Source: Candidatus Levyibacteriota bacterium (GTDB lineage: Bacteria > Patescibacteriota > Microgenomatia > Levybacterales > UBA12049). From it: a DNA stretch of 45,372 nt. Numbering within the stretch: the first letter of the stretch is position 1; each line of letters opens with the position of its first letter. The notes beneath the pieces are model-generated. The model saw only the letters and a program-made list of their open reading frames with translations. It was not told the origin of the DNA and made no database searches. A program made the translations under genes and the position numbers. Shown here piece after piece: positions 4,953 through 30,978 of the stretch. The stretch is taken from assembly GCA_043823085.1 (NCBI GenBank), contig JBDRBE010000001.1, positions 179,110 to 224,481 of the forward strand, in the 5' to 3' direction.

Positions 4953-4986
4953 TTCATTGAAAATTGAAAATTTAAAATTGAAAATT
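4953..4986 (+). repeat. 34-nt heptamer-periodic AT-rich element, copy A (groEL 3' flank, untranslated)
   Basis: TTCATTGAAAATTGAAAATTTAAAATTGAAAATT, identical to 21303-21336. (ATTGAAA)x4 with the third copy ATTTAAA. Confidence 0.85.
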
Positions 4987-4989
4987 TCG

Positions 4990-6651
<1,662 letters not shown>

Positions 6652-6939
6652 TTATTCAACAATTGCTAAAATATCTTTTTGCTCAACTAACATCCACTCT
6701 TGATTGTTAACTTTAACTTCATTTCCGCCCCATTTTTTATACATGACTTTTTGTCCAACTTTTACAATCATGGGCATTAGTTTTCCGTCGTTATTGACTG
6801 CGCCCGAACCAATTGCCATTACTAAACCGATTTGTGGTTTTTCTTTAACAGTATCTGGAAGAACAATTCCGCTTGCGGTTTTTACTTCTGCCTCCAAAGG
6901 TTTAACAAGAACATTATCAAATAGTGGTTTTATATTCAT
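6652..6939 (-). CDS. groES: Co-chaperonin GroES (Cpn10)
   Basis: Conserved start MNIKPLFDNVLVKP at ATG 6939, with AAAGGAA just upstream. The 24-codon extension in the ORF track covers a hairpin and is not GroES-like. Confidence 0.92.
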   Translation of the reverse strand: MNIKPLFDNVLVKPLEAEVKTASGIVLPDTVKEKPQIGLVMAIGSGAVNNDGKLMPMIVKVGQKVMYKKWGGNEVKVNNQEWMLVEQKDILAIVE

Positions 6940-7004
6940 TTCCTTTTTCTGACCCCGATTTAATCGGGGCTGATTATTTTTTGCCGGCATATTTTTGATA
7001 AAAA

Positions 7005-7061
7005 ATATCACTTGTTCAAAGTGACTGCTAATTTATACAATAACTGCTATCTGTTTGTCAA
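7005..7061 (-). promoter_or_regulatory. groESL promoter followed by a degenerate CIRCE-like inverted repeat
   Basis: Minus strand: TTGACA (7061-7056), 18-nt spacer, TATAAA (7037-7032). Then TTAGCAGTC-N9-AAGTGATAT (7031-7005), which matches 14 of 18 arm positions of CIRCE (TTAGCACTC-N9-GAGTGCTAA). Confidence 0.5.
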
Positions 7062-7121
7062 TATCCTATAGTTAAGATTGCTGGTCTTGACATAATTTCT
7101 CTCCTACTATACGATAAATTC

Positions 7122-8387
7122 ATGCATCTTCTTTCGGGGAAGAGATTTGTTTTAATTGGTTTTATCGTCGTTTTGCTTACGGCAATACCTTTTACTGTTT
7201 ATCTGGCACAAAAACAGCAGGAAACAAAAAGCAAAGCCGAAGTCCTTGCAGTACTCTCCCTTCTAGAAGGCGGCGGACAATCATCTCAAGGGTCGCCGAT
7301 TACCAGAGATACCGGACAAAGCCTTGATCTTGATCTTTGGGTTGATCCGGGAAATCAAACAGGTTATGATATTCGAAATTCCGTAGTCTATGTTGGTGTA
7401 ACCATAAAATATGACAGCACAAAACTGGCCTTGAACCCATCGCAACCAGCAATACCATGCGGCGGAGTGGAAAAAGTGCATGATCTTTTCCAACCAATTA
7501 GCCCGCCAAATTGTAGCAATCCGGGCACAGTTACAGCCGCCTGGATAATAACTGACCCAAACAATGCACTTGAAGCTAAGGCTATTATTGCTAAATTTCA
7601 CTTTTTACCGATAGCTCCCACCAGTTCACCAATTGAGATAAGCTTTGATACTAATAACACAACTGTTGCAAGCAAAGTTAAAAATACTAGTCCGGAAAAT
7701 AATTCTTTGCTCTCTGCTAATTCCGCTTGGGTTACAATAAGCGGCGAGGCGCTCACCCCGGCACCGACAGCAGGGGAAGGAACTCCAACTGCAACTCCTG
7801 TTCCCGGCCAAGCAACAAATACTCCTGCTCCAACAGCTGGCACCGGAAATCCTGTTTGTACTGCATTAAACACAGATAGGACACCAAATGGAAACGCTCC
7901 TTTTACTGTATCTTTAACCGCAAACGGTAATGATCCAAATGGAACTATTAGTAAAGTCACTTTTGACTTTGGTGATGGTCCTGTCCAAAATGTAACCCAA
8001 TCAGGCGGAGTGGGAACAAATTCTGTTAGCGTTCAAGTTTCCCATACTTATCAAAATGCGGGAAGTTATAAAGCAACGGCCACATTAACTGATAATAACA
8101 ACCTCTTAAGCGATCCCACAACTTGTACACAAACAATTACTGTTTCTCAAGCCACTCCAACGCAAGCCGGAGGAGGGGGAGGAGGAGCAATATATGTTAC
8201 GGCAACGCCAACAGTTACTCCTTCCGGCGGTGCGGCAACCCCAACTGAAGTTACTGCCACAACTGAAGAAACCGCTGCAACAGCAGTTCCGACCCTAAAA
8301 CCGGGTCCAAATAATAATATTGCCGGAATTGGAATAGCTGGAATAATTACTGCAATTATCGGATCTTTGATCTTTTTGGCACTCTAG
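7122..8387 (+). CDS. Surface protein: N-terminal TM anchor, cohesin-like domain, P/T-rich linkers, PKD domain, C-terminal TM helix
   Basis: PKD-like block (FTVSLTANGNDPNGTISKVTFDFGDGP...YQNAGSYKATATLTDNNN). P/T linkers and a Gly6 run. Hydrophobic N- and C-termini. Confidence 0.6.
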   Translation: MHLLSGKRFVLIGFIVVLLTAIPFTVYLAQKQQETKSKAEVLAVLSLLEGGGQSSQGSPITRDTGQSLDLDLWVDPGNQTGYDIRNSVVYVGVTIKYDSTKLALNPSQPAIPCGGVEKVHDLFQPISPPNCSNPGTVTAAWIITDPNNALEAKAIIAKFHFLPIAPTSSPIEISFDTNNTTVASKVKNTSPENNSLLSANSAWVTISGEALTPAPTAGEGTPTATPVPGQATNTPAPTAGTGNPVCTALNTDRTPNGNAPFTVSLTANGNDPNGTISKVTFDFGDGPVQNVTQSGGVGTNSVSVQVSHTYQNAGSYKATATLTDNNNLLSDPTTCTQTITVSQATPTQAGGGGGGAIYVTATPTVTPSGGAATPTEVTATTEETAATAVPTLKPGPNNNIAGIGIAGIITAIIGSLIFLAL

Positions 8388-8388
8388 T

Positions 8389-10134
8389 TTAGGACTGCTC
8401 TATCATTGAGGAAATTACTTCTTGGGGAATAATTATTTTTGAAGCTGAAAAAAGTTTGCTTTTTCCTTTTTTTTGCTTTTCCAAAAGCTTATCTTTTCTT
8501 GTTCTGTCCCCGCCCGACATCTTTTTTAAAACATCTTTCCTAAAAGGCGCTACTTCTCCTCGGGAAAGAATTTTTCCATTTGCAACCGCCTGAATAACTT
8601 GCCGGAATTGCCTCTTTGGCAAAGATTCTTTAAGCCTGTCAACTTTGGCAATTGCTCTGTGATTAACTTCATCTTTATAAACAAGTTCCGATAAAATATC
8701 TATTTGTTCGTTATTAATTAAAATTTCCAAATTCAGCAAATCCGCTTTTTCATATCCCAAAAGATTATAATCAAGGCTGGCAAAACCGGAAGTTATACTT
8801 TTTAATTCAGATGAAAATCCACGAATAAACATACTATAAGGCATTATATATTTTAAGACAGCGTAAGCATCATGATAAGAAATATTTTCCAATCTTCCTT
8901 TTTTCTTTTGGCAAAGAGAAATAATATTACCGATAAAAGTCGCCGGCGTATAAACTAATAAATTAATATAGGGCTCAAGGATTGCACCGTCTTCTCCTTT
9001 TTGGTAGAGAACTTGAGGCATAGTTAAAAAAAGATCTATTCCCTCCTCTTGTTTTAATCGTTCTTTGATAATCTCCGCGTGTAAAAGGCCTAAAAAACCA
9101 ACTCGAAATCCGCTGCCCAAATATGCTGAATGTTCTTCGAAGTAAGTTAAAGAAGTATCATTTAAACAAATTTTATCTAAAGCTTTTCGAAGTTTTAGAA
9201 AATCATCGGAATTTTTTGGATAAATTCCATAAAAAACCATGGGCTTGGGAACTTTATACCCCGGGAGTGGTTTTACATTTGCCATTTGCCATTTGCCATT
9301 TGCCATTTCGATGGTGTCGCCCACATGGCAATCATGAATATCCTTAATCCCTGTTATTACATATCCTATTTCTCCTGTTCCCAATTTTTCCGCCGCTTTT
9401 AAAAACGGACTAAAATATCCCACCTCTTTTGCTTCTGTTTTTATTTTGGTTTGATAAAATTCCAAACTTTCTTTTTTTTCAATTTTGCCGTCAACTACCC
9501 TAACATAGGCAATAACACCTTTATGTTCGTCATAAAAAGCGTCAAAGATAAGGGCACGGAGAGGTGAGTCAATTAAACCGTGCGGCGGCGGAATTTTTTC
9601 GACAATTGCATTAATCAAAAGCTCAACGTTTTCGCCTGTTTTTGCCGAGATATAAATAATTTCTTCCTTTTTAAAACCGAAAAAATCCATCAGAGTTTTT
9701 GCAACCAGTTCTATATTGGCATTTGCCAAATCTATTTTGTTTATAACTGGAATCATTACCAAGCCAAGTTCTTTTGCACTATTATAATGAGCAACTGTCT
9801 GGGCTTGAATATTTTGTGTTGCATCAACTAATAACACCGCTCCTTCGCAAGCGGCCAATGTTCTTGAAACTTCATAAGAAAAATCAACATGACCGGGAGT
9901 ATCAATTAAGTTCAGTGTGTAAAGTTCAAAATTCAAAGTGTACTGCATGCGAACAGGAGCTAGTTTGATTGTGATTCCCCTCTCACGGCTGATAGGATTT
10001 TGGTCCAAAAATTGCTCGATCATTTTTTCTTTGGAAATTGTTCCGGTTAATTCCAAAAGCCTATCCGAAAGCGTTGATTTTCCATGATCAACATGGGCAA
10101 TAATGGCAAAATTTCTAATATTCCTTTGTTCCAT
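8389..10134 (-). CDS. lepA: Translation elongation factor 4 (LepA)
   Basis: IRNFAIIAHVDHGKSTL, DTPGHVDF and NKID GTPase motifs. LepA C-terminal domain (GGDRTRKDKLLEKQKKGK). Confidence 0.95.
   Translation of the reverse strand: MEQRNIRNFAIIAHVDHGKSTLSDRLLELTGTISKEKMIEQFLDQNPISRERGITIKLAPVRMQYTLNFELYTLNLIDTPGHVDFSYEVSRTLAACEGAVLLVDATQNIQAQTVAHYNSAKELGLVMIPVINKIDLANANIELVAKTLMDFFGFKKEEIIYISAKTGENVELLINAIVEKIPPPHGLIDSPLRALIFDAFYDEHKGVIAYVRVVDGKIEKKESLEFYQTKIKTEAKEVGYFSPFLKAAEKLGTGEIGYVITGIKDIHDCHVGDTIEMANGKWQMANVKPLPGYKVPKPMVFYGIYPKNSDDFLKLRKALDKICLNDTSLTYFEEHSAYLGSGFRVGFLGLLHAEIIKERLKQEEGIDLFLTMPQVLYQKGEDGAILEPYINLLVYTPATFIGNIISLCQKKKGRLENISYHDAYAVLKYIMPYSMFIRGFSSELKSITSGFASLDYNLLGYEKADLLNLEILINNEQIDILSELVYKDEVNHRAIAKVDRLKESLPKRQFRQVIQAVANGKILSRGEVAPFRKDVLKKMSGGDRTRKDKLLEKQKKGKSKLFSASKIIIPQEVISSMIEQS
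9281..9308. repeat. (GCCATTT)x4 perfect tandem heptamer inside lepA
   Basis: Four exact copies, preceded by a partial ACATTT. Read on the minus strand as EMANGKWQMANVK. Confidence 0.9.
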
Positions 10135-10196
10135 AAAAATGAATCTAAGTTAAGTATAACAGTATACTTTGGTAAGAAGTTAAAAGCAAATAAAAC

Positions 10197-12329
10197 TTAT
10201 GCGGCCTCTGCTAATTCTTCCTCCGCAATCTTTTCAAGGATTGGGAGATAGAGTTTTTTGATTTGTTCGATAACCATTCTGCGAGTCGTGAAATTTTTTG
10301 AAACTTCTATCATCGTCTTTTTCATCCTCATCATCCATTCGTCCTTTCTGTTATAAAACATCGGTGCAATTTCTTCTCTGAAAAACCTATACAGATCATT
10401 CGCGTCTCTTAAATCTACCATCGAAGCTTGACATTCATCCATTTTAGTTGCATCATCATCAACCCTTCCTATGCTCCATCCTTTATCAAACCACTTTACT
10501 TCATCTCCCCATCCATCAATTTCTGTTAAATGTAAATCTCCATTTAAACCAGCTTTCATGCCGCTTGTGCCGCTTGCCTCCATTTTACGCCTCGGAACAT
10601 TTATCCAAAGATCAACTCCGGAAACTAAAAGCCTTGCCAACTCCATATCATACTCACTAACAAAAACTGCTCTTTTTTTTAACCGTAGGTCTTTTATCTT
10701 ACCGTTAATACTAGCTATCATCTCCTTACTGGGTAAATCAGAAGGGTGTGCTTTACCTCCGATAATTATTTGAGTAGGATACATACTATTTCCCACTATT
10801 TCAGAAAGCTGGCTTATATCGGAAAAAAGTAAATTATTCCTTTTGTACATTGCAAATCTTCTGGCAATACAACCAGTCAAATAATCCGGAGAAAGATTAC
10901 AGCCATATTTATCATTTAAGTAAGTAATTAATCTCTTTTTTTGTTCAAGTTTTGCTTCCAATAATTCTTCGCTTGGAATTTCATATATCTTGTTAAATAT
11001 TACTGTGTTATCAAGTTCTTCTCTCCAAGCATTACCAAGATATTTATCAAAAAGATTTTGCATTGGCTCTCCAAGCCAAGTTTCAATATGCGCGCCGTTT
11101 GTAATCGATTCTATTTCTTCTTCTGGATATAACTCCCTTAATTTTTCTGTATGGATTTTGCTTACGCCATTTTTTTTGGCAGAAACATTAAGAGCAAGTC
11201 GCGTCATTGAAAAACCATATTTATCTTCACCAAGAGCGTATAACTCATCTGTACTAACCGGTCTTTCAGGCGTACTCATCCTTTGAGCAAGAGATCCCAA
11301 ATAACGATCTATTTGTTCTTTCGTGAAAAAATCCTGAACAACAATTGTGTGATTTGTAAAAACAGTTCTACCCTGAAGATACCATCCCGCTTTATCCAAA
11401 GGCATACCATTTTCCACCAAATTTGCAATTGCTTCAAGAACAGCAAATGCCGCATGCCCTTCCTGTAAATGATAAATACTCGGCTCTTTACCAAGAGCTT
11501 TTAAAAGACACACTCCGCCAACACCCAAAACTATTTCTTGTCTGATTCTTGCATCATTATCTATAGAGCTGTAAAGATGTCCTGTTATCCACTTGCCTGC
11601 TTCCTTTTCGTTTTCCGGAATATTAGTATCCAATAAATAAAGATTATTACGTCCTATGGCTACTTCCCAAGCTTTGGCAAAAACATCACCATCGCCCATT
11701 GGAATTTTTATCAGGCCAATTTTATTTCCATCTTTATCGACTGCCTCGGTCATAGGAAATTCATGACCGCACTGATCACAATATAATTCTTTTTGTCTGC
11801 CTTCGCTATCAATTTCTTGTTTAAAATATCCGCCTCGATATAAAAGTGAAACATTATCAACAGGCAAACCCATATCGCTTTCTTGACGGGCCACATCGCC
11901 ATTTAACATTCCAAGTCCTCCGGAATAAATTTGCGGGACCTTACCAATTGCAATTTCCAAACTAAATGAAGTAATCGGATGATTTTTTAAATATTCTTTC
12001 TCTTTTGGTGATAAGACTGAGGTTCTCTCAAACCAAGTATCTTTATTCAATAAATATTCCACGTAACCATTGAAAATCGCCGGGATTGATTCTTGAAATC
12101 CATTTGAGTAAACTTTGGTAGCAAAATCATTTGGTTTCATTCTTTGGAGAGCTTGCCAAGGATTATCAGAACCATCGGTTAATTTACCAAGAATCCTTCT
12201 GGCTTGTGTACCTATAGGACCGCGGTGAGAATTTCCTGCAAGCACTTGGCTTAGAAAAAGTAACTTACCTAAAACTAAAGGGTCATTCTCTGATTGCTGA
12301 CCTAAAACTCTCTCGAGAGTTGGTACCAT
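10197..12329 (-). CDS. glgP: Alpha-glucan (glycogen/maltodextrin) phosphorylase, GT35 family
   Basis: 710 aa. SGGLGMLNGD near the N-terminus and the PLP-lysine motif EASGTSGMKAGLNG. Confidence 0.85.
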   Translation of the reverse strand: MVPTLERVLGQQSENDPLVLGKLLFLSQVLAGNSHRGPIGTQARRILGKLTDGSDNPWQALQRMKPNDFATKVYSNGFQESIPAIFNGYVEYLLNKDTWFERTSVLSPKEKEYLKNHPITSFSLEIAIGKVPQIYSGGLGMLNGDVARQESDMGLPVDNVSLLYRGGYFKQEIDSEGRQKELYCDQCGHEFPMTEAVDKDGNKIGLIKIPMGDGDVFAKAWEVAIGRNNLYLLDTNIPENEKEAGKWITGHLYSSIDNDARIRQEIVLGVGGVCLLKALGKEPSIYHLQEGHAAFAVLEAIANLVENGMPLDKAGWYLQGRTVFTNHTIVVQDFFTKEQIDRYLGSLAQRMSTPERPVSTDELYALGEDKYGFSMTRLALNVSAKKNGVSKIHTEKLRELYPEEEIESITNGAHIETWLGEPMQNLFDKYLGNAWREELDNTVIFNKIYEIPSEELLEAKLEQKKRLITYLNDKYGCNLSPDYLTGCIARRFAMYKRNNLLFSDISQLSEIVGNSMYPTQIIIGGKAHPSDLPSKEMIASINGKIKDLRLKKRAVFVSEYDMELARLLVSGVDLWINVPRRKMEASGTSGMKAGLNGDLHLTEIDGWGDEVKWFDKGWSIGRVDDDATKMDECQASMVDLRDANDLYRFFREEIAPMFYNRKDEWMMRMKKTMIEVSKNFTTRRMVIEQIKKLYLPILEKIAEEELAEAA

Positions 12330-17245: not shown

Positions 17246-18522
17246 AAATTGCCATTATCGGCGCTGGATTAACAGGTCTTACTTTGGCATATAAATTATC
17301 TAAAAAAGGTTTCTATGTTTCTGTTTTTGAGAAAGATGAAATTCCCGGAGGTCTCGCGAAAGGATTTAAATCAGAAAATTGGCAATGGTATTTAGATAAT
17401 TATTATCATCATATTTTTACTTCCGACAGCTCAATTATAAATTTAGCAAAAGAGGTAAATATACCGATTGGTTTTCTTAGACCAAAAACAAAAAGCTTGA
17501 TTGATGGGAAAATTTATCCTCTTGATTCACCTTTAGACGTTTTGTCTTTTAAAGAATTAACTGTCTTAGAAAGATTAAGGATGGGCTTAATTCTAGCCTA
17601 TCTAAAAATAACGCCCTTTTGGAAATCAATGGAAAACGTAGCCGCGGCAGACTTTTTACCAAAAATGATGGGAGAAAAATCTTACAAGATTCTGTGGGAA
17701 CCGCTTTTATCGGCAAAGTTTGGTCAATATAAAAATCATGTTCCTCTCTCTTGGTTTTGGGCAAGGATTAAAAAAAGAAGCGCCAGTCTTGGATACCCCC
17801 AAGGCGGTTTCCAAAATCTGATTAATGAGATTAAAAATAAAGCGCAAAAAAATGGCGTAAAATTCTATTTTGAAAGTGAAGTAACTAAAATTTCAAAAAA
17901 TAGAGAAGAAATAAATCTTTCTTTTGCAAACTCGAAAAAGGAAACTTTTAATAAATTAATTGCAACAATTCCCTCACCGTCTTTTACTAAACTGATTGAT
18001 GATCTCCCAAAAGATTATATTAAAAAATTAAATTCGCTGAAATATATTTCCGCATTAAATCTAATTCTTGTCTTAAACAAACCATTTTTCCAGGACAATA
18101 CTTATTGGCTTAACGTCTGCGACAAAAGCTTTCCCTTTTTGTCCGTGGTCGAACACACGAATTTTATCGATTCAAAATATTATAACGGCGAACACATTAT
18201 TTATGTAGGAAATTATTTACCGCAAAACCATCCCTATTTTTCAAAATCCGCTGATGAACTTCTTGCAATTTTTGATCCATTCCTTAAAAGGATAAACCAA
18301 AATTATAAGTCACAAGTTATAAATTATAAGTTGATCAAGGACTATTTCGCCCAACCGGTTATTCCTTTAAATTATTCAAAGATTATTCCCTCATTCAAAA
18401 CTCCGCTAAAGAATGTTTATCTTACCAACATGCAGCAAGTTTACCCCTGGGACAGAGGCACAAACTACGCTGTAGAATTTGGGGAAAAAGTGGCAAGCTT
18501 AGTTGCTTATGAAACATTTTGA
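17242..18522 (+). CDS. NAD(P)/FAD-dependent oxidoreductase (amine-oxidase / UDP-galactopyranose-mutase-like fold)
   Basis: N-terminal Rossmann motif KIAIIGAGLTGLTLAYKLSKKGFYVSVFEKDEIPGGLA, then YYHHIF. Confidence 0.7.
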   Translation: MKIAIIGAGLTGLTLAYKLSKKGFYVSVFEKDEIPGGLAKGFKSENWQWYLDNYYHHIFTSDSSIINLAKEVNIPIGFLRPKTKSLIDGKIYPLDSPLDVLSFKELTVLERLRMGLILAYLKITPFWKSMENVAAADFLPKMMGEKSYKILWEPLLSAKFGQYKNHVPLSWFWARIKKRSASLGYPQGGFQNLINEIKNKAQKNGVKFYFESEVTKISKNREEINLSFANSKKETFNKLIATIPSPSFTKLIDDLPKDYIKKLNSLKYISALNLILVLNKPFFQDNTYWLNVCDKSFPFLSVVEHTNFIDSKYYNGEHIIYVGNYLPQNHPYFSKSADELLAIFDPFLKRINQNYKSQVINYKLIKDYFAQPVIPLNYSKIIPSFKTPLKNVYLTNMQQVYPWDRGTNYAVEFGEKVASLVAYETF

Positions 18523-20134
18523 AAATAAATATACTATCCGCTATTTGCTATTTGCTATTATACTGTTCGGCGCTTTTTTGCGCTTCTATAATCTAAATTG
18601 GGGCGCTCCATATTATTTTCATCCCGATGAGAGAAATATTGCTTCATCCATTTCTCAGCTAAATTTTCCTTGGCAAATGAATCCGCATTTTTTTGCTTAT
18701 GGAAGTTTCCCGATTTATGTTAGCTATTTTGTTGGGATTATTTTTAACTTACTATTTCAAGTAATACACGCACAAGCTTTTGACAGAAATATTTTCTTTG
18801 TTTCGTTTGAAAATGCAATTATTTCCTTAAGACTAATATCTGTATTATTAAGTATTTCAATTATTCCCTTAATTTATTTTACCGGGAAAAAATTGGGCGG
18901 AAGAAAAGTTGGTTTATTAGCGGCAATTCTTTCTAGTATTAGTGTCGGATTTATTCAATTTGCTCATTTTGGAACATTTGAAATCTGGCTAACATTTTTA
19001 AGTCTTTTATTTTTCTATTTATGTTTAAGAAACATAGAAAAAATTACCCTTAAAAATATTATCGTTTTATGCGTTGTTCTAGCTCTTCTTTTTGGAACTA
19101 AAATTTCAAGTCTTGTCATACTTCCTCTGCCGTTTCTTTTAATCATAAAAAATATAAAAGGCTATAAAAAAATCACATATTCTTTTCTTTCTCTTTTTGC
19201 GCCAGTAATAATTTTATTATTAATATCGCCTTTTTTTATTTTAGATTTCAACTCTTTTCGAGGGAGCATGCAGTATGAATCATCTGTCGCACTTGGAACT
19301 TTACCGGTATTTTATATCGGCGAATTTTTTAATTCATTGCCAATACTTTTTCAATTTACAAGAATTTACCCTTTTCTACTAAACCCAATTATTACGCTAC
19401 TTCTTATTCCTTCCATTGTCTATATCCTGTATCAATCTTTTAAAAAGAAGCTTGTTGACCATTATCTGCTATTTGCTATTTTCTCTTTGCTATTCTTTTC
19501 CCAGGCTTTTTTCTTTGCCAAATGGACAAGATATATGGTGCCGACTCTGCCTTTTATTTATTTAATGATTTCTCTTACTCTTATAAGTTTTTTAAAATTG
19601 CCGATAAAAAATGTTTTTAAAAATATCTTTTTTACATTAATAATTTTTGGAAGTTTTCTTTATACCACTTCTTATTTTATAACTGCGTTTGTAAAAGCTG
19701 ATACAAGAATTTCGGCCGCAAGCTTTGCTCAAAAAAATATTTCGAGAGATTCAAATATTTTAAGTGAGGTTTATGATCTTGGCATTACTCCATTTAATCC
19801 CCTTCTCTCAAAAATTACACTTTTTAATTTTTACGATTTAGATCAAACTCCATCAAAAGAAGATGAACTTTCTTCTTATCTTTCAAATTACGATTATCTT
19901 ATTTTGCCAAGTCAAAGAATTTTAAAATCAAGATTAATTCAACCGAAACAATTTCCTGTAGGATATAATGTTTACAAGAAAATTGTCGATGAACTTGGAT
20001 TCAAAAAAATTTACCAGTCACCATGTGATATTTTCTGTAAGATTACTTATTTAAATAATCCTGTTTTCTCTTTTGAGGAAACAGCAAATATCTTTGACCG
20101 TCCGACTGTTTTTATTTATAAAATAATGCATTAA
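18509..20134 (+). CDS. GT-C fold membrane glycosyltransferase (GT39/ArnT/PMT-like), paralog 1
   Basis: Polytopic membrane protein. Shares NLNWGAPYYFHPDERNI and NPHFFAYGSFPIY with the next ORF. ATG 18509 preferred over TTG 18503. Confidence 0.7.
   Translation: MKHFENKYTIRYLLFAIILFGAFLRFYNLNWGAPYYFHPDERNIASSISQLNFPWQMNPHFFAYGSFPIYVSYFVGIIFNLLFQVIHAQAFDRNIFFVSFENAIISLRLISVLLSISIIPLIYFTGKKLGGRKVGLLAAILSSISVGFIQFAHFGTFEIWLTFLSLLFFYLCLRNIEKITLKNIIVLCVVLALLFGTKISSLVILPLPFLLIIKNIKGYKKITYSFLSLFAPVIILLLISPFFILDFNSFRGSMQYESSVALGTLPVFYIGEFFNSLPILFQFTRIYPFLLNPIITLLLIPSIVYILYQSFKKKLVDHYLLFAIFSLLFFSQAFFFAKWTRYMVPTLPFIYLMISLTLISFLKLPIKNVFKNIFFTLIIFGSFLYTTSYFITAFVKADTRISAASFAQKNISRDSNILSEVYDLGITPFNPLLSKITLFNFYDLDQTPSKEDELSSYLSNYDYLILPSQRILKSRLIQPKQFPVGYNVYKKIVDELGFKKIYQSPCDIFCKITYLNNPVFSFEETANIFDRPTVFIYKIMH
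18531..18558. repeat. 7-nt-periodic tract ATACTAT-CCGCTAT-TTGCTAT-TTGCTAT
   Basis: Read directly; encodes YTIRYLLFAI at the start of the first TM helix of the GT-C gene. Confidence 0.6.
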
Positions 20135-20136
20135 AA

Positions 20137-22002
20137 ATGAAAAGAACAGACCGTCTTATTCTAATTATAATAATTATTATTGCCGCCGCTTTTAGGATTT
20201 ACGGACTAAATTGGGATCAAGGTTTTCACTTGCATCCTGACGAAAGAGCTATCACAATGTTTGTGATACCCCTTCAATTCCCAAGAAGCATTTTTGAATT
20301 TCTTTCTCTCCAAAGTTCTTGGAATCCGCATTTTTTCGCCTATGGTAGTTTCCCATTATATTTTTTGAAAATTTTTGGCCAAATAGCAAGCGCTTTTAAC
20401 CAAGAACTTTCCGGGTATTCTCTCTTGAATCTTTTAGGCCGTTATTTATCGGTATTTTTTGATTTAGGAACTTTGATTTTTATCTTTCTTCTGACACGAA
20501 AAATTTTTAATCAAACGCTGGGTTTTATTGCCGCATTTTTCTATGCCATTAGTGTTTTCTCCATACAGGCGGCTCATTTTTACGCCGTTGACACGCCTTT
20601 AACTTTTTTTGTTTTAATTACACTTTACCAACTTATCAGGTTCTATGAAAAACCAAGCAAAAAAAATGCAATAGTTGTCGGAATTTTCTTTGGACTTTCA
20701 CTGGCTACAAAAAATAGCGCTCTTGTTCTTCTTTCCTCCATTGGACTTTCCCTGACAGCTGATTTTTTCCTTATCCTTTTTAAAAATCCTCATCGCCCTC
20801 ATATTTGGTTTCCTCATTTCTTAAAATTTGTAAAATCGCTTATTAATGATGGAGTTATTATTGGGATTAGTACTCTTTTGACCTTTCTAATTTTTGAGCC
20901 TTATGCGCTTTTAGATTTTAAAGAGTTTTATAGACAAACCATGCAACAATATCAAATGACGCATGACGCTTTTACCTTTCCGTATACGCTCCAATATGTT
21001 GGAAAAATTCCCTATTTTTATGAATTAAAAAATATTTTTCTCTGGGGGCAAGGACCGATACTTGCGATTTTGTCTTTCCTGGGAGCATTATATTTTACTT
21101 TTATTGCAATTAAAAAATCCCGTCAAGCCCAAAGCAAACAGTCTAAAGAATTAATTATTGCTGTATTTTTTTGGTCATACTTCTTAACCGTGGGAAATTT
21201 TGCTATTGGTTTTATGCGCTACATGCTCCCCTTATATCCGCTCTTTTGCATTTTCGCAGCAGTAATTTTTTACCGGATTTTTAAAAAATTAAATTTTGAA
21301 AATTCATTGAAAATTGAAAATTTAAAATTGAAAATTATATTTTTATTGATGATCATGAGTATCCTAATTTGGCCGTTAGCTTTCATGCACATTTACACTC
21401 AACCCAATACCCGCGTCAGCGCATCCAATTGGATAATAAAAAATATTCCCCAAGGTAAAACATTGGCTATTGAACACTGGGATGACTCTTTGCCGCTTTT
21501 TGGACAAGAAAAATATAAAATATTGATTCTCCCCCTGTATGATCCGGATACCGAAGCGAAATGGTCAATAATAAATCAAACGCTTTCTCAAACCGATTAC
21601 ATTGTCATTGCTTCCAATCGCCTTTATATTCCACTACAAAAACTAACTGATTGCAATTCTCTTCCGCCAGGCAGATGCTACAAAGAAACAGCTGATTATT
21701 ATAAACGATTATTTAATGAACAGAATGTCATCTCTTCGAGCCCGAGCCTCAGAGCCGAAGGCCTGAATTTATTTCAGGATCTCAATCAACCCGAGATTCC
21801 GAAACAAGTTCGGAATGACATAAGAGGTATACGGTTTCAAAAAGTCGCAGAATTTACAAGTTATCCGACATTAGAAACCAGAAATTTACCTGTCCTTCGA
21901 AGCCTTGGCGTAGGAGGAAAATTAGAAATTGATGATTCATCGGCAGATGAATCTTTTACGGTTTATGATCATCCCAAAATAATAATTTTTAAAAAAATTT
22001 AG
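20137..22002 (+). CDS. GT-C fold membrane glycosyltransferase (GT39/ArnT/PMT-like), paralog 2
   Basis: GLNWDQGFHLHPDERAI and NPHFFAYGSFPLY motifs parallel to paralog 1. Polytopic, with a soluble C-terminal domain. Confidence 0.7.
   Translation: MKRTDRLILIIIIIIAAAFRIYGLNWDQGFHLHPDERAITMFVIPLQFPRSIFEFLSLQSSWNPHFFAYGSFPLYFLKIFGQIASAFNQELSGYSLLNLLGRYLSVFFDLGTLIFIFLLTRKIFNQTLGFIAAFFYAISVFSIQAAHFYAVDTPLTFFVLITLYQLIRFYEKPSKKNAIVVGIFFGLSLATKNSALVLLSSIGLSLTADFFLILFKNPHRPHIWFPHFLKFVKSLINDGVIIGISTLLTFLIFEPYALLDFKEFYRQTMQQYQMTHDAFTFPYTLQYVGKIPYFYELKNIFLWGQGPILAILSFLGALYFTFIAIKKSRQAQSKQSKELIIAVFFWSYFLTVGNFAIGFMRYMLPLYPLFCIFAAVIFYRIFKKLNFENSLKIENLKLKIIFLLMIMSILIWPLAFMHIYTQPNTRVSASNWIIKNIPQGKTLAIEHWDDSLPLFGQEKYKILILPLYDPDTEAKWSIINQTLSQTDYIVIASNRLYIPLQKLTDCNSLPPGRCYKETADYYKRLFNEQNVISSSPSLRAEGLNLFQDLNQPEIPKQVRNDIRGIRFQKVAEFTSYPTLETRNLPVLRSLGVGGKLEIDDSSADESFTVYDHPKIIIFKKI
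21303..21336 (+). repeat. 34-nt heptamer-periodic AT-rich element, copy B (inside a CDS)
   Basis: Identical to 4953-4986. Translated as SLKIENLKLKI. Confidence 0.85.
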
Positions 22003-22049
22003 GTTCTTGTTTTTAAAACTTTTACAGTGTTACAATCATTTTTATAATT

Positions 22050-23081
22050 ATGAAAGTTATAATTACCGGGGGTTGCGGGTTTTTGGGAGTTCACTTGGCA
22101 AGAAAACTTCTTAAAGAAAAATATTCTGTAACTCTTTTTGATCTTGCCAGTTTAGAAGCGAGAGACTTAATGGGAAAAGTAAATCTTATAAAGGGGGATG
22201 TGCGCGATAAAAAGAGTGTTGAAAAAGCAATCGAAAAAAATGATTTTGTTATTCATACTGCTGCCGCACTGCCGATTCAAAAAACAAAAGAAATAATTTT
22301 TGATATAAATATAAATGGTACGAAAAATGTTTTAGATTCTGCTTTACAAAACAAAATAAAGCGACTCATTTTTATTTCTTCAACAGCTGTCTATGGAGTT
22401 CCAAAAACTTTGCCGGAAACCGAAGATGACAGACTTGACCCAATTGGATATTACGGCCAGTCAAAAATTATTGGAGAAAATTTATGCAATGAGTATATGT
22501 CAAAAGGACTTTCGATAAATATTCTTCGCCCAAAAACTTTTTTAGGGCCAGAGAGACTTGGAGTCTTTGAACTTTGGTTTGAGGCAATTTATACCGATAA
22601 AAGAATTTTCATTTTAGGTAACGGTAATAATCGCTATCAACTTCTGGCGGTTTCCGATATGACCGACGCCATCGTTAAAGCCATGACTTGCAAGATTGAC
22701 GGTGAAACATTTAACATTGGCGCAAAAAAATTTAAAACATGGAGAAAAGATCTTGGTGCTGTTATCAAATATGCAAAATCAAAATCGAAGATTACCGGTC
22801 TGCCTGTTTTACCATCACAAATTATCTTATCTATTTTAGAAACATTGAATCTTTCCCCAATCGCCGCCTGGCACTATAAAACCCTGCCAATTAATTCTTA
22901 CGTTTCTATTAAAAAAGCGGAAAAACTCCTTAATTGGCATTCTAAAAAATCCAATGAAAAACTTTTACTTGAAAGTTATGAATGGTACAAAAAACACAGA
23001 AGTCAAGTACAGCATAGAATCGGTTTGACCCACAGGGTCGGATGGAATTTTAAACTTCTTAATCTTTTTAAAAAATTTTAA
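22050..23081 (+). CDS. NAD-dependent epimerase/dehydratase (extended SDR)
   Basis: VIITGGCGFLGVHLARKL Rossmann motif and catalytic YGQSK (YxxxK). Confidence 0.85.
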   Translation: MKVIITGGCGFLGVHLARKLLKEKYSVTLFDLASLEARDLMGKVNLIKGDVRDKKSVEKAIEKNDFVIHTAAALPIQKTKEIIFDININGTKNVLDSALQNKIKRLIFISSTAVYGVPKTLPETEDDRLDPIGYYGQSKIIGENLCNEYMSKGLSINILRPKTFLGPERLGVFELWFEAIYTDKRIFILGNGNNRYQLLAVSDMTDAIVKAMTCKIDGETFNIGAKKFKTWRKDLGAVIKYAKSKSKITGLPVLPSQIILSILETLNLSPIAAWHYKTLPINSYVSIKKAEKLLNWHSKKSNEKLLLESYEWYKKHRSQVQHRIGLTHRVGWNFKLLNLFKKF

Positions 23082-23087
23082 TAAATA

Positions 23088-23627
23088 ATGAATTTAGGTT
23101 TTGATTTTGATAAAATTTTTGTAGATTACCCGCCTTTTATTCCAAACGGAATAATTGATCGACTGTATAAAAAAAAGTCTAATGGAGAATTATTGTATCG
23201 AATTCCATCCAGGCTTGAACAAATCTTAAGACTTATTAGCCATCAATCAATTTTTAGGCCGCTTATCAAAGAAAATCTAATTTTTTTAAAAAAAATCAGA
23301 CAAAAAAATAACCATAAATACTATCTTATTTCTAGCCGATTTAGTTTCCTAAAAAAACCAACCCAAGGAATTATTAAAAAGTGTGAATTTGATAAGATTT
23401 TTAATGCCATGTATTTTAATTTCGAAAACGAACAACCGCATATTTTCAAGAATGAAGTAATAAAAAAATTAAAGATTAACAGATATATAGATGATGATCT
23501 GCCGCTTATAAAATTTTTAGCCAATGAGAATCCAAAAACATTTTTTTTCTGGCTTAATAAAAAAGATAATAAAAAATTAAGCAAAAACTTAATGGCCGTT
23601 ACTAAAATCAATAAAATCTTAAGTTAA
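23088..23627 (+). CDS. Hypothetical protein, possibly a HAD-superfamily phosphatase
   Basis: Candidate HAD motifs: FDFDKIF (DxD), LISSR, a conserved Lys region and YIDDD. The match is weak. Confidence 0.35.
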   Translation: MNLGFDFDKIFVDYPPFIPNGIIDRLYKKKSNGELLYRIPSRLEQILRLISHQSIFRPLIKENLIFLKKIRQKNNHKYYLISSRFSFLKKPTQGIIKKCEFDKIFNAMYFNFENEQPHIFKNEVIKKLKINRYIDDDLPLIKFLANENPKTFFFWLNKKDNKKLSKNLMAVTKINKILS

Positions 23628-23628
23628 G

Positions 23629-25917
23629 ATGAATCCTGTTGACTTTTTATTTGTTATCAAATGGTGGCTTGTATTTTTGATTATTGGAATTATTTTTTTA
23701 CCGCTAACTGCTAAGATTTTTTCTAGATTTTTTGATCTTGGGTATATTTTTTCTAAAATTTTTGCCTTAATTTTTATTAGCTATGCTGTCTTTCTTTTTG
23801 GAATTTTAAAAATTATTCCCTTTACTTTTCCTTTTCTTATTTTAATAATTCTTGGATTTTTAATTTTTAATTTTTACCTATTCTCCAAGAATTTTAAAGA
23901 TCTCGTTATTTTAAAAAATAATTGGAGGATATTTGCTTTCGAAGAACTGCTTTTTTTATCAACTCTTATTTTTTGGTCATATGTCCGTGGTTTTGCGCCA
24001 GATATTCATGGTCTGGAAAAATACATGGATTTTGGGTTTGTAAATTCAATTTTAAGAAGCGATTATTTTCCGCCAAAAGATATGTGGCTTACCCCATTTC
24101 CTATTAATTATTATTATTTCGGACATTTAGTTACTGCTGTTTTAACAAAACTTTCCGACATTCTTTCTATTGTTACCTATAATCTGATGCTGGCAACAAT
24201 TTTTGCCCTGACATTTACAGCCAGTTTTTCTATCGGCGCTAATCTTATTTCTAAACTAAATGTTAAACACTACAAACTATATACCATACGCTATAAGCTA
24301 TATGTTATTATTAGTGGTCTCACTTCTGCCTTTCTAGTAACTCTTGCCGGCAACCTTCATACTATTTATACTCTTTTTAAACCCTACTCCAATGAAAACC
24401 CCGTGCCTTTTTGGCAGCTTCTATTTGCCTTTGATTCATTTCCAAATTCCTATTGGTATCCAAATGCCACTCGTTTTATTTACAATACCATTCACGAATT
24501 CCCTATTTATTCTTTTGTCGTCTCCGATCTTCACGGTCACGTTTTAGATATACCAATTGTTCTTTTAACAATAGCTATTCTGCTTAGCTTAATTTTCAAT
24601 TTTCAATTTTCAATTTTCAATCAAATTAAAAATTCTAAAAATCAAAATTCATTTCAAATTTCAAATTTTAAATTTCAAATTGTATTATTAGGTTTCTTAT
24701 TAGCAGTAATGTACATGACCAACGTTTGGGATGGAATTATTTATGCCCTCCTTATATTATTTGTCTTTTTCTATCTCGCATCTTGCACTAAAAACTATAC
24801 GCTATACGCCATACGCTATACGCTGGTTATCCTTGGTTTTATCTTGTTTTCTCTTCCATTTAATTTAAACTTTAAACCATTCGCATCAGGTATTGGAATT
24901 TTATGCGCTCCGACTTTTTTAACCGATATTGGAAAAATTGGTCCGTTTCTTTTTGAAGCCAATCATTGTCAAAAATCACCTTTCTGGCAATTTTTGATTC
25001 TCTACGGATTTTTCTATTTTTGGATCATCTCATTTTTAATATATTTATTTAAAATCAAAAGTCTCGGCCAAAGGCCGATCAGTCTCTGGCTGAAAAAACC
25101 AAAAATCAATTTTAATTTTATTAGAAATTTGAAATTAGAAATTAGAAATTCTTTGTTTCCTTCTGATCTTTTTATTCTGATATTAATCTTCTTATCAACA
25201 TTACTGATTATAATCCCCGAATTTATTTATGCCAAAGACATATATCCTGCTCATTATCGAGCTAACACCATGTTCAAACTTGTCTATCAATCTTTTATTA
25301 TGCTTTCTATTTCCTCTGGATACATAACCATCAGAATTGTATCAAGCATCAAATATCAAGTATTAGGTATTAGCCTTAAGAAAAACTTATTTGCTATATG
25401 CTACTTGCTACTTGCTACTTGCCTATTATTTCTAGTATCTATTTATCCTTTCTTTGCCATTAATTCATATTACGGCGATCTGCAGATTTATAAAGGGCTT
25501 AACGGACTATCTTACCTAAAAAGTTTATACCCGACAGATTACGAGGCAATTCTTTGGCTAAATAAAAACATAAAAGGGCAGCCCGTAATTTTAGAGGCAC
25601 AGGGGGATTCATACACTGACTTTGCCAGAGTTTCTGCCAATACCGGTCTTTCGACAGTTTTGGGTTGGACAGTTCATGAATGGCTTTGGCGCGGAACATA
25701 TGATATCCCTGCTCCAAGAATTCCCGAAGTGGCAACACTTTATGAGACAAGTGATATGAATTCAACCACTGACTTAATAAAAAAATATAATATTTCTCTT
25801 GTCTTTATCGGCGATTTGGAACGCCAAAAATATCCAAAACTTAACGAACAAAAATTCCAAACTTTGGGAAAAATTATCTTCCAAGGCGGCAACACTAAAA
25901 TTTATAAAATAAATTAA
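23629..25917 (+). CDS. DUF2298 (Chlor_Arch_YYY) polytopic membrane protein, GT-C-like
   Basis: 762 aa with many TM helices. Diagnostic FPINYYYFGH motif. Confidence 0.75.
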   Translation: MNPVDFLFVIKWWLVFLIIGIIFLPLTAKIFSRFFDLGYIFSKIFALIFISYAVFLFGILKIIPFTFPFLILIILGFLIFNFYLFSKNFKDLVILKNNWRIFAFEELLFLSTLIFWSYVRGFAPDIHGLEKYMDFGFVNSILRSDYFPPKDMWLTPFPINYYYFGHLVTAVLTKLSDILSIVTYNLMLATIFALTFTASFSIGANLISKLNVKHYKLYTIRYKLYVIISGLTSAFLVTLAGNLHTIYTLFKPYSNENPVPFWQLLFAFDSFPNSYWYPNATRFIYNTIHEFPIYSFVVSDLHGHVLDIPIVLLTIAILLSLIFNFQFSIFNQIKNSKNQNSFQISNFKFQIVLLGFLLAVMYMTNVWDGIIYALLILFVFFYLASCTKNYTLYAIRYTLVILGFILFSLPFNLNFKPFASGIGILCAPTFLTDIGKIGPFLFEANHCQKSPFWQFLILYGFFYFWIISFLIYLFKIKSLGQRPISLWLKKPKINFNFIRNLKLEIRNSLFPSDLFILILIFLSTLLIIIPEFIYAKDIYPAHYRANTMFKLVYQSFIMLSISSGYITIRIVSSIKYQVLGISLKKNLFAICYLLLATCLLFLVSIYPFFAINSYYGDLQIYKGLNGLSYLKSLYPTDYEAILWLNKNIKGQPVILEAQGDSYTDFARVSANTGLSTVLGWTVHEWLWRGTYDIPAPRIPEVATLYETSDMNSTTDLIKKYNISLVFIGDLERQKYPKLNEQKFQTLGKIIFQGGNTKIYKIN
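24593..24620 (-). repeat. (TTTTCAA)x4, the reverse complement of (TTGAAAA)x4 and the same heptamer as the 34-nt element
   Basis: Four perfect copies inside the DUF2298 ORF, read as FNFQFSIFN. Confidence 0.85.
24651..24678. repeat. (ATTTCAA)x4 with the third copy ATTTTAA
   Basis: Read directly; encodes FQISNFKFQI. Confidence 0.8.
24795..24822. repeat. (CTATACG)x4 with the third copy CCATACG
   Basis: Read directly; encodes YTLYAIRYT. A degenerate relative lies at about 24268-24305 (CTACAAA CTATATA CCATACG CTATAAG CTATATG). Confidence 0.85.
25120..25147. repeat. (ATTAGAA)x4 with the second copy ATTTGAA
   Basis: Read directly; encodes IRNLKLEIRN. Confidence 0.8.
25391..25425. repeat. 7-nt-periodic tract TTGCTAT-ATGCTAC-TTGCTAC-TTGCTAC-TTGCCTA
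   Basis: Read directly; encodes FAICYLLLATCL. Confidence 0.75.
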
Positions 25918-29980: not shown

Positions 29981-30978
29981 AAATAAAAGACGTTGAACAA
30001 CAAGAAAAAATAAAATTTAATGAAATTGTTAATCATCCTCTCCAGAGTTTTGAATGGGGAGAATTTAGAAAAAAAACCGGCGTCAAGGTTATAAGACAAA
30101 AATCTTTCCAATTGACCATCCATAAAATCCCCTGCCTGCCTTGGACAATCGGCTATTTACCCAAAGGAGAATTACCAAACAAAAAACTTATTGATGAACT
30201 TTTAGAAATCGGTAAAAAAGAAAACTGCATTTTTATTCAACTGGAACCAAACGCCATAAAAATTGAAGATTTAAAATTTAAAATTGAAAATTTAGGACTA
30301 GTGCCTTCTGCCCGTCCTTTATTTACCCGCTACACTTTTCAATTAGACCTAACTAAATCCCCGGAGGAATTATTAAAAAATATGCATCCAAAAACCAGAT
30401 ACAACATTAAGGTTGCGCAGAAACACAACGTTGAAATTGCCGAAGATAATTCCAATGGAGCGTTTGAAACATATCTTAAGTTAACAAAAGAAACAACCCA
30501 GCGGCAAAAATTTTATGCGCACAGTGAAAACTATCATCGTCTAATGTGGGAAACCCTTCGCCCTGCCAAGCAGGGCTCAGGGCAAGCTCTCACTGCCCAT
30601 TTGATGCTTGCAAAATATAAAAGCAGAATTTTGGCTGCTTGGATTTTGTTTGTTTTTAAAGACACTCTTTATTATCCTTACGGCGCGTCAAGTTCGGAGT
30701 ATCGAGAAACTATGGCCTCTAATCTTTTGATGTGGGAAGCAATATTATTTGGCAAAAAATTAGGTCTTAAAAAATTTGACATGTGGGGAGCTTTAGGACC
30801 AAACCCGGATAAAAATGACCCATGGTTTGGCTTTCATCGTTTTAAAGAAGGGTATGGAGGTAAATTGATTGAATTTATAGGCAATTATGATTTCGTCATT
30901 AACCCCTATCTTTATACTCTCTATAAAATCGGCGATAAAGCAAGATGGTTTTTTCTTCACCTTAAAAATGGTGCTTGA
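29977..30978 (+). CDS. FemAB-family peptidoglycan interpeptide aminoacyltransferase
   Basis: ATGA overlap with the helicase gene. FemX-like pattern (HPLQSFEWGEF..., HPKTRYNIKVA, YYPYGASS, FDMWG, GFHRFKEGYGG). Confidence 0.8.
   Translation: MKIKDVEQQEKIKFNEIVNHPLQSFEWGEFRKKTGVKVIRQKSFQLTIHKIPCLPWTIGYLPKGELPNKKLIDELLEIGKKENCIFIQLEPNAIKIEDLKFKIENLGLVPSARPLFTRYTFQLDLTKSPEELLKNMHPKTRYNIKVAQKHNVEIAEDNSNGAFETYLKLTKETTQRQKFYAHSENYHRLMWETLRPAKQGSGQALTAHLMLAKYKSRILAAWILFVFKDTLYYPYGASSSEYRETMASNLLMWEAILFGKKLGLKKFDMWGALGPNPDKNDPWFGFHRFKEGYGGKLIEFIGNYDFVINPYLYTLYKIGDKARWFFLHLKNGA
30262..30292 (+). repeat. Heptamer-periodic AT-rich element, copy C (29 of 31 identical to the core of copies A and B)
   Basis: ATTGAAGATTTAAAATTTAAAATTGAAAATT inside the FemAB-family ORF, read as IEDLKFKIEN. 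Confidence 0.75.

Follow-up and report, generated by a model that had tools for sequence, protein, structure and literature searches.

The stretch analyzed here, called the window throughout, is a 45,372-nt segment of contig JBDRBE010000001.1 (positions 179,110 to 224,481; assembly GCA_043823085.1) from a Candidatus Levyibacteriota bacterium, with a GC content of about 34%. Its GroEL is 82 to 88% identical to proteins of Levybacteria/Levyibacteriota metagenome-assembled genomes (MAGs), and its DUF2298 protein is 69% identical to that of one Levyibacteriota genome, which marks it as a bacterium of the Microgenomates, within the candidate phyla radiation. Of central interest are the 3' flank of groEL (Cpn60; 4990 to 6645, minus strand) and an open reading frame (ORF) at 20137 to 22002 (plus strand), assigned by Pfam to the GT-C proteins (PMT_2, PF13231; glycosyltransferase family 39-like; 621 amino acids [aa]), both of which contain the same 34-nt string of heptamer repeats, TTCATTGAAAATTGAAAATTTAAAATTGAAAATT. 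Comparisons with relatives show that arrays with 7-nt units arise at the DNA level in Levybacteria, where they sit between stop codons and terminators and in permissive protein loops. The 34-mer is probably one member of a genome-wide population of heptanucleotide mini-arrays, similar to the short tandemly repeated repetitive (STRR) sequences, that are copied between loci and evolve in concert.

An identical heptamer array in a groEL 3' flank and a GT-C gene

The initial annotation of the window described the 34-nt string as occurring base for base at two sites, and it does: copy A (4953 to 4986) and copy B (21303 to 21336), both on the plus strand, match at 34 of 34 positions. Their flanks are unrelated, and the identity is confined exactly to the 34-mer. 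No exact match was obtained in 100 dinucleotide-preserving shuffles, which speaks against base composition as the source of the second copy. The string consists of a TTC prefix followed by 4.4 units of ATTGAAA, with ATTTAAA as unit 3, in agreement with the core described earlier. Copy A was correctly placed as untranslated sequence between the groEL stop and its terminator. It begins 3 nt past the TAA stop and finishes just before the intrinsic terminator hairpin on the minus strand (4948 to 4932; ACCGCGG-AAG-CCGCGGT, then a T run), so the groEL 3' untranslated region (UTR) carries its reverse complement. Copy B is translated in frame as (N)SLKIENLKLKI, aa 389 to 400, the SLKIENLKLKI reading previously given, in a hydrophilic loop flanked by two hydrophobic stretches of the GT-C protein. 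The periodicity of the arrays is 7 nt, not 3.

The two-site inventory missed a third copy with two mismatches, copy C (TTGATTGAAAATTGAAAATTGAAAATTGAAAATT; 24589 to 24624, minus strand, with the match to the 34-mer at 24591 to 24624), in which TTG replaces TTC and unit 3 has a G instead of the T (the pure G form) and which lies reversed inside a DUF2298 ORF, where it is read as LIFNFQFSIFN. A related ATTGAAA/ATTTAAA array at 30257 to 30292 (plus strand), in a FemAB-family ORF, is read as IKIEDLKFKIENL and has its last 20 nt in common with the 34-mer; no period-7 array was detected in the FemAB gene of the syntenic genome CP066685.1 (L298). Folding gave no sign of a palindrome or hairpin in the 34-mer (minimum free energy, −1.4 kcal/mol; z = +0.7), and an Rfam scan found nothing at it, its sole match being a tRNA-Asn. 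An assembly artefact is an unlikely source of copies A and B, because orthologs can be aligned to the GT-C protein both before and after the element and because the stop-array-terminator layout after groEL recurs in independently assembled relatives.

Stop codon removal and probable copying between loci

A pure (ATTGAAA)n array places a TGA in each forward frame every third unit, since 7 and 3 have no common factor. The sole deviation of copy B from the consensus is the G-to-T change of unit 3, which converts the in-frame TGA to TTA. In the same way, the (ATTAGAA) array at 25120 to 25150 deviates only where a TAG would be in frame, giving TTG, and the array at 30257 to 30292 likewise has its in-frame stop removed. 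With a pure consensus, these three arrays would read SLKIEN-stop-KLKI, IRN-stop-KLEIRN, and MKIEN-stop-KLKIEN; the real arrays deviate exactly there. In other genomes the T is found at whichever unit is in frame, and the patterns GGTG, GTGG, and TGGT encode LKIENLKLKI, IENLKLKIEN, and NLKLKIENLKF. In 13 arrays that have one more unit upstream (prefix TAA), that unit bears a T in addition to the T of unit 3, and the two lie three units apart because the frame requires it. Among reverse-oriented arrays ((AATTTTC)n, read NFQFSIF and stop-free in all frames) and those in non-coding DNA, most are pure (85 of 120 sampled). Inside an ORF, these patterns show, an array survives only without an in-frame stop.

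The non-coding copy A carries the coding-adapted T of copy B, along with its irregular TTC prefix and its ends. Estimated from the frequencies in sampled arrays, the chance of a GGTG pattern in a non-coding array is about 1% and that of a TTC prefix is 2 to 11%, so that an independent origin of the two copies has a probability of about 10^-3. Since an untranslated copy shares the T, the prefix, and the ends with a translated one, the two appear to be related by copying, and we infer from their sequences that they are not independent: either one copy served as template for the other, or a common array gave rise to both. The likely link is ectopic gene conversion between arrays, or templated repair, most likely with a coding array as the donor and the groEL spacer as the recipient. 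The same pairing exists in a Moranbacteria genome (PFVN01), where a TTC-type 34-mer is found twice, at unrelated loci, once in non-coding DNA and once in PrmC. About nine genomes hold at least two GGTG copies; genomes with two TTC copies number two, PFVN01 and the window itself, against roughly 0.1 expected (a rough estimate).

A population of period-7 arrays

Tandem Repeats Finder located about a dozen heptamer arrays in the window, and an X-drop scan found 6 strong period-7 runs versus none at any other period from 4 to 13 and none in shuffles. In 474 kb around groEL from 80 relatives, 10 arrays had period 7, versus 0 to 3 at periods 4 to 6 and 8 to 13; the 8 arrays counted at period 14 were largely the period-7 ones. 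A larger set, 1.59 Mb of low-GC loci from which ascertained unit families had been removed, contained 104 period-7 arrays with 4 units or more, versus 1, 5, 11, and 5 at periods 5, 6, 8, and 9. Array lengths have a mode of 30 to 35 nt (about 4.5 units) in coding and non-coding DNA alike, and arrays of 4 to 13 units exist. A frame constraint of +3 units was considered as the cause of the 4.4-unit mode and ruled out, as non-coding arrays share the mode. Of the non-ascertained arrays, 57% lie within ORFs and 43% are non-coding, versus 17% of random positions; arrays are thus enriched outside genes.

At least 74 different canonical heptamer units occur across the loci, and the window alone contains ATTGAAA, ATTAGAA, ATTTCAA, CATTTGC/TATTTGC, CTATACG, and TTGCTAC. 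For example, a perfect (CATTTGC)x4.7 array (9271 to 9308, plus strand) inside the minus-strand lepA gene is read as EMANGKWQMANV, in a segment 4 aa longer than that of Aquifex LepA. The same (Y)ATTTGC unit forms a second recurrent family, with further members at 18534 to 18559, 19463 to 19494, and 25388 to 25422. Read forward, it encodes hydrophobic YLLFAIC-type peptides in membrane segments of both GT-C genes and DUF2298; read in reverse, it encodes the hydrophilic ANGKWQM in LepA. This suggests that an array-encoded peptide must fit its local protein environment.

Conservation and turnover at orthologous sites

Identity of 31- or 34-mers between orthologs is biased by exact-match ascertainment, and DNA-level conservation was therefore measured on DUF2298 orthologs found by protein similarity, those of CP066685.1 (L298), L299, L300, and L301. 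Across the gene, the window and these orthologs are 67 to 72% identical in nucleotide sequence and use the same codon at about 50% of conserved residues (51% outside the arrays). Two array regions depart from this background. A composite block at 24589 to 24681 (plus strand), consisting of (AATTTTC)4.7, an A-rich spacer, and (ATTTCAA)4.4, retains 93 to 97% DNA identity in three other Levybacteria genomes, and a (CTATACG)-type array at 24792 to 24824 (plus strand; read as KNYTLYAIRYTL) matches the L298 ortholog at 34 of 36 nt and is present in L300 too. Compared with L298, the arrays of the two regions are identical at 33/33, 32/33, and 34/36 nt; among the window, L298, L299, and L301, shared arrays are identical at 61/63 to 64/66 nt. 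They are the most conserved segments in the entire gene, with the same codon at 38 of 41 conserved residues versus 21.4 expected (P < 1e-5, simulation), and their unit number is equal in four genomes, all in frame.

Other arrays in the same gene are missing from the other orthologs or have been swapped for different inserts in L300. These are the (ATTAGAA)4.4 array at 25120 to 25150 (plus strand; read IRNLKLEIRN), which lacks a counterpart in L298 to L301; the (TAYTTGC)5 array at 25388 to 25422 (plus strand; read as LFAICYLLLATC, in a hydrophobic segment), which is partly missing from L298; and an array near 24280. Arrays are therefore kept almost invariant or swapped wholesale. No array position is truly silent, because each position of the unit is read as codon base 1, 2, and 3 in successive units. 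We interpret the conservation as probable concerted evolution; a sequence-specific function or molecular drive may also lie behind it. Arrays identical at orthologous sites between flanks that have diverged, synonymous sites included, are a trait reminiscent of uptake signals.

Inserts of other kinds occupy the same gene. At 25060 to 25098, adjoining the ATTAGAA array, is a small hairpin-type insert (core TCGGCCAAAGGCCGA, read SLGQRPISLWL) belonging to a 25-aa segment missing from the L298 ortholog. The palindrome-encoded peptide (D/E)SGQARMT (TCTGGACAAGCCAGA) is found in several L300 DUF2298 loops and in P0010 of the GT-C alignment, occupying loops that hold heptamer arrays in other genomes. 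The loops of DUF2298 and GT-C proteins are hot spots for several unrelated mini-insert families.

In the GT-C gene, the 11-aa segment encoded by copy B is missing from all 31 aligned orthologs, so the alignment proposed in the initial annotation revealed no case of the same peptide at that position in other codons. Most orthologs have 560 to 600 aa, commonly about 570, versus 621 in the window, and the extra length consists of several mini-inserts. At the copy B loop, orthologs mostly have nothing; some have other arrays or inserts, such as FSIFNFQFS...ISNFKFQI in P0008, KKFSIFNFQFSI in P0042, and a different insert, SLHALRLVGMT, in further orthologs. A C-terminal hot spot (21870 to 21930, plus strand) holds a degenerate (ATTAGAA) array split by a 30-nt GC-rich insert (21889 to 21918), and here orthologs have LEIGNWKLEI, LEIRNLKLEI, the reverse reading LSIFNFQFSI, or no array. 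LEIGNWKLEI is a pure (ATTGGAA)4.3 array, nucleotide-identical in two genomes. Stretches of at least 10 aa that a pure heptamer could encode were present in 13/120 GT-C homologs and 33/120 DUF2298 homologs. The GT-C genes of CP066685.1 are only about 20% identical to the 621-aa protein, and the 34-mer site is not DNA-comparable there.

Further inserts were seen in and beside this gene. The GC-rich 30-nt insert (CCTGTCCTTCGAAGCCTTGGCGTAGGAGGA, read PVLRSLGVGG) is nested in the degenerate array, and at the same point orthologs have the pure (ATTGGAA)4.3 array or the GC-rich inserts ACPPMLGFCRRG and ALPVLEGSLPNG. At 21721 to 21828, a 36-aa in-frame insert (QNVISSSPSLRAEGLNLFQDLNQPEIPKQVRNDIRG) that most orthologs lack is encoded by an imperfect palindrome with the ends GTCATC...GGAATGAC, and inserts of a similar type (NVILNSFQ..EIPKQVRND; NVILASERSERVQNL) are present in DUF2298 genes as well as in further orthologs. 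The insert appears to represent another family of in-frame mini-elements, one that is palindromic; an inverted-repeat search of 21600 to 22002 returned none at the thresholds applied. An epimerase gene (22050 to 23081) and a 179-aa ORF (23088 to 23627) separate the GT-C genes of the window from DUF2298. Both are missing from the L298 segment (6932 to 12145) that is otherwise syntenic with 18503 to 25917 of the window and that has two GT-C genes.

At the groEL site, many Levybacteria and other Microgenomates have the same order of stop codon, array, and terminator. The arrays of these relatives use other units, including AATTTCT, GTTSAAA, AATAGTG, and TCAGTTG, and the spacer has long held a heptamer array.

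Occurrence in other genomes

A search of other genomes with the 34-mer, as the initial annotation had suggested, yielded exact matches in 8 species-representative genome stretches and 22 metagenome stretches, or about 19 distinct sites. The match is nearly always forward and in frame, in unrelated genes: Fmt (three orthologs), PrmC, the CCA-adding enzyme, a thioredoxin-reductase-like gene, DUF2298, and GT-C. Searching with the 31-nt core gave 74 stretches from other genomes; in 53 of these it lies inside a forward ORF of at least 100 aa and is read as xLKIENLKLKI. It has 26 different 3-nt prefixes (TAA in 13, TTC in 8, AAA in 7, and others) and varied suffixes. Its hosts are mostly bacteria of the candidate phyla radiation (CPR), with some Bacteroidales, Cloacimonadota, and Armatimonadota. 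A 2-nt target-site duplication, by which 34 + 2 nt would be in frame, was ruled out when flanks were inspected by eye.

Many phyla have pure (ATTGAAA)n arrays, which also turn up in GC-rich genomes and in viral contigs. Those with 4 to 13 units in contigs of 50 to 68% GC (L009 to L016 [viral], L040, L054, L068, L079, L113, and others) come from Bacteroidales, Acidobacteriota, Nitrospirae, Planctomycetota, and IMG/VR; in L015, two arrays 870 nt apart have a common GC-rich left flank (GCCGTGCCCGTGGT). One metagenome contig of 1,068 nt (L035) has the left flank of the L005/L019 PrmC locus and the right flank of the L003 locus, joined exactly at the 34-mer, and is most likely a chimera created when short reads were assembled through the repeat that both loci share. 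Many MAGs titled "uncultured Gammaproteobacteria" (L159 to L238; TPA_asm, binchicken/SRP co-assemblies) encode a GroEL 70 to 88% identical to that of the window. The "Gammaproteobacteria" MAGs examined (e.g., L004 and L043) have a CPR-like GC content of 37 to 38%, and those with a Levybacteria-like GroEL appear to be taxonomically mislabelled.

Origin and maintenance of the arrays

For a population of mini-arrays that is copied between loci and evolves in concert, we infer 7-nt slippage as the means of generation and gene conversion as the means of maintenance. Judging from the literature only, slipped-strand synthesis with a 7-nt step would first generate arrays, and those within ORFs would be retained where the in-frame stop is removed. 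Ectopic gene conversion or templated repair could then move sequence between arrays that share heptamer-periodic homology, and homogenization within and between arrays, together with the three-phase reading of units, may keep them invariant. The initial annotation had offered a DNA-level dispersed element or a templated repeat-generating process, tolerated in frame by host ORFs. Both an origin at the DNA level and tolerance in frame hold up, and the repeat-generating form fits better than a discrete element.

Several observations weigh against this account. Simple slippage predicts monotonically falling array lengths, not a mode of about 4.5 units in non-coding DNA, and stepwise growth by 7 nt in essential ORFs passes through frameshifted intermediates. 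The exact TTC 34-mer is present at about 19 sites in at least 11 gene families and several CPR phyla, a cross-phylum recurrence that exceeds what independent growth would be expected to give and hints at the spread of a pre-formed unit. Conservation at synonymous sites could stem from a sequence-specific function. Neither a conversion tract nor a slippage event nor a length difference between strains was directly observed, and the source genome was represented by the window only. The length mode of about 31 to 34 nt and the recurrence of identical arrays across phyla are left unexplained by slippage and conversion. A speculative proposal, which we regard as rather doubtful, is that an active length-measuring process, not passive slippage, writes or maintains arrays of about 31 to 34 nt whatever the unit; this could be a templated patch-synthesis or gene-conversion activity or an uptake-and-recombination drive. 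If true, identical arrays would be installed in unrelated genes across CPR and other phyla with their synonymous sites invariant, amounting to an unrecognized DNA-level remodelling of protein loops and 3' UTRs.

In a rival account, the 34-mer, or a composite of about 57 to 95 nt containing it, would be a discrete non-autonomous mobile element that inserts into genes and spacers and moves horizontally in CPR, akin to a small Rickettsia palindromic element (RPE) or miniature inverted-repeat transposable element. The exact 34-mer at about 19 sites in unrelated genes of Moran-, Roizman-, Levy-, and Parcubacteria fits such an element, as do the similar upstream sequences of many copies (of the form TTTGAAAATTTAAAAATTGAAAA), the composite (AATTTTC)n-spacer-(ATTTCAA)n shared by the DUF2298 genes of four genomes and a GT-C gene of another, presence/absence differences among orthologs, and over-representation of the TTC subfamily. 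We nevertheless consider a mobile element unlikely. Terminal inverted repeats or self-complementary arms were not found, the 34-mer is unstructured, and the flanks of the 19 or so sites share no consistent target-site duplication. Moreover, the length of 34 nt is not divisible by 3, the 31-nt core with its 26 prefixes has variable rather than constant ends, arrays often take the place of a loop that is about as long (as in TsaD, in T9SS-CTD proteins, and at the GT-C C-terminal site), and at least 70 other heptamer units show like size and behavior. No adjacent transposase-like gene was seen, in Pfam results that covered 8 window ORFs only and were no systematic test. Both this diversity of units and the turnover between close orthologs, where arrays are gained and lost, also make it quite improbable that the arrays are functional signals under selection or molecular drive, such as an uptake-type signal or a DNA/RNA-protein binding array. 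CPR bacteria are thought to depend on DNA uptake, and a signal would account for the nucleotide conservation across four genomes, synonymous sites included, for the conserved stop-array-terminator order at groEL, and for the identical 31-mers between diverged flanks at orthologous TsaD (6 loci), PrmC, CCA-adding enzyme, and T9SS-CTD sites, a set ascertained by exact match. However, the unit at the groEL site varies between relatives, and about 4 ATTGAAA-type copies per 45 kb is far under the density of uptake signals.

Copies A and B might also have arisen independently, by local slippage of an ATTGAAA seed, and converged through AT bias and stop removal: the genome is AT rich (34% GC), the GGTG 31-mer recurs 74 times with varied prefixes, and each of the three frame phases has its own T pattern. 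Convergence of this kind is very unlikely for the pair at hand, in that the groEL copy is untranslated and nothing therefore selects its T, non-coding arrays are overwhelmingly pure, and the common TTC prefix and identical ends add a further factor of about 10 to 50 against chance; a second genome, besides, has the same pairing. Least probable of all is that the arrays are phase-variation switches, in which envelope glycosylation genes would change frame whenever a single 7-nt unit is added or lost. A unit length that is not a multiple of 3 and the dense occurrence of arrays in GT-C, DUF2298, and FemAB genes, which have envelope functions, would suit such switches, but the same arrays lie in housekeeping genes (lepA and those for TsaD, PrmC, Fmt, and the CCA-adding enzyme). 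Four diverged genomes have the same copy number, the tracts are short and interrupted, and every array seen was in the ON frame.

Significance and comparison with known repeats

A non-coding copy with a coding-adapted substitution offers direct evidence for transfer between arrays, and conservation at synonymous sites indicates that the arrays are not neutral filler. In CPR, a measurable part of the length variation of GT-C, DUF2298, and even housekeeping enzymes comes from DNA-level mini-arrays, not from protein evolution. There are also practical consequences, as low-complexity peptides such as LKIENLKLKI, NFQFSIF, and LEIGNWK can mislead homology searches and the arrays can produce chimeric joins in short-read assemblies, as in L035.

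The initial annotation had not recognized the 34-mer as a described repeat family. Heptameric tandem repeats are in fact a described class, although our literature searches for heptamer repeats in CPR or coding regions, and for these peptides or DNA strings, found no paper. Heptanucleotide STRR sequences were reported in cyanobacteria (Mazel 1990, as cited in PMC4692102), and heptameric simple sequence repeats were later found to be widely over-represented in bacteria (Mrazek, Guo & Shah 2007, as cited in PMC4692102). Neither their origin nor their role has yet been explained, although they have been linked to polymerase slippage (PMC4692102). Three heptanucleotide families are known in Calothrix (Rehm et al. 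2015, PMC4692102). Like STRR sequences, the arrays described here have head-to-tail 7-nt units, an excess at period 7, several unit families per genome, frequent intergenic positions, and an unexplained mechanism. The arrays of the window and of mostly CPR genomes differ in their AT-rich units, in being translated (57% lie in ORFs) with in-frame stops repaired, and in recurring identically in unrelated genes and phyla.

The G-rich GGGNATC/GGGGAYT heptamers of Xanthomonas and Nostoc prefer four units and positions within 50 bp of stop codons (Rehm et al. 2015, PMC4692102), and their sites, not their sequences, are kept between species (PMC4692102). The Levybacteria arrays share the number of about four units, the proximity to stop codons, and intergenic sites that are common to relatives with variable sequence. 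The four-unit preference in Xanthomonas and Nostoc, where the repeats are under-represented in coding DNA, has been attributed to G-quadruplex formation (PMC4692102). Levybacteria arrays are AT rich and cannot form G-quadruplexes, yet they have the same length mode, so their preference is not driven by such structures, which argues against the published explanation.

The RPE, named as a precedent in the initial annotation, compares in its consequence: both are short in-frame repeats in unrelated genes that add a peptide in permissive regions and differ in presence among orthologs. The likeness ends there, because the 34-mer has no inverted repeats, target-site duplication, or constant ends and other units behave alike; RPEs are palindromic, discrete, and about 100 to 150 bp long, whereas the element of the window is 31 to 34 nt, non-palindromic, and periodic, with variable ends. 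Elhai and coworkers are said to have described, in 2008, small dispersed repeats nested in heptamer arrays of Nostocaceae. Tiny GC-rich inserts within heptamer arrays, such as the one at 21889 to 21918 in the ATTAGAA array, resemble these, although lineage and sequences are different and both layers are translated in the window. Uptake signal sequences (USS) of Pasteurellaceae and DNA uptake sequences of Neisseriaceae are similar by sequence pattern alone, as short motifs in coding and terminator-proximal DNA and in permissive protein regions that stay identical at orthologous sites between diverging flanks; USS comprise a single motif at about 1 per kb, whereas the window arrays have many units and a lower density.

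Tandem repeats inside the ORFs of Borgs have units that are multiples of 3 and form long arrays, whereas the unit in the window is 7 nt, so that every frame is read in turn. Borg repeats and the present arrays are alike in that perfect tandem repeats made at the DNA level create low-complexity protein segments (Schoelmerich et al. 2023, PMC9879509). Against these systems, the in-frame coding arrays, stop repair, transfer between loci, and conservation at synonymous sites appear to be new aspects of a known class of repeats.

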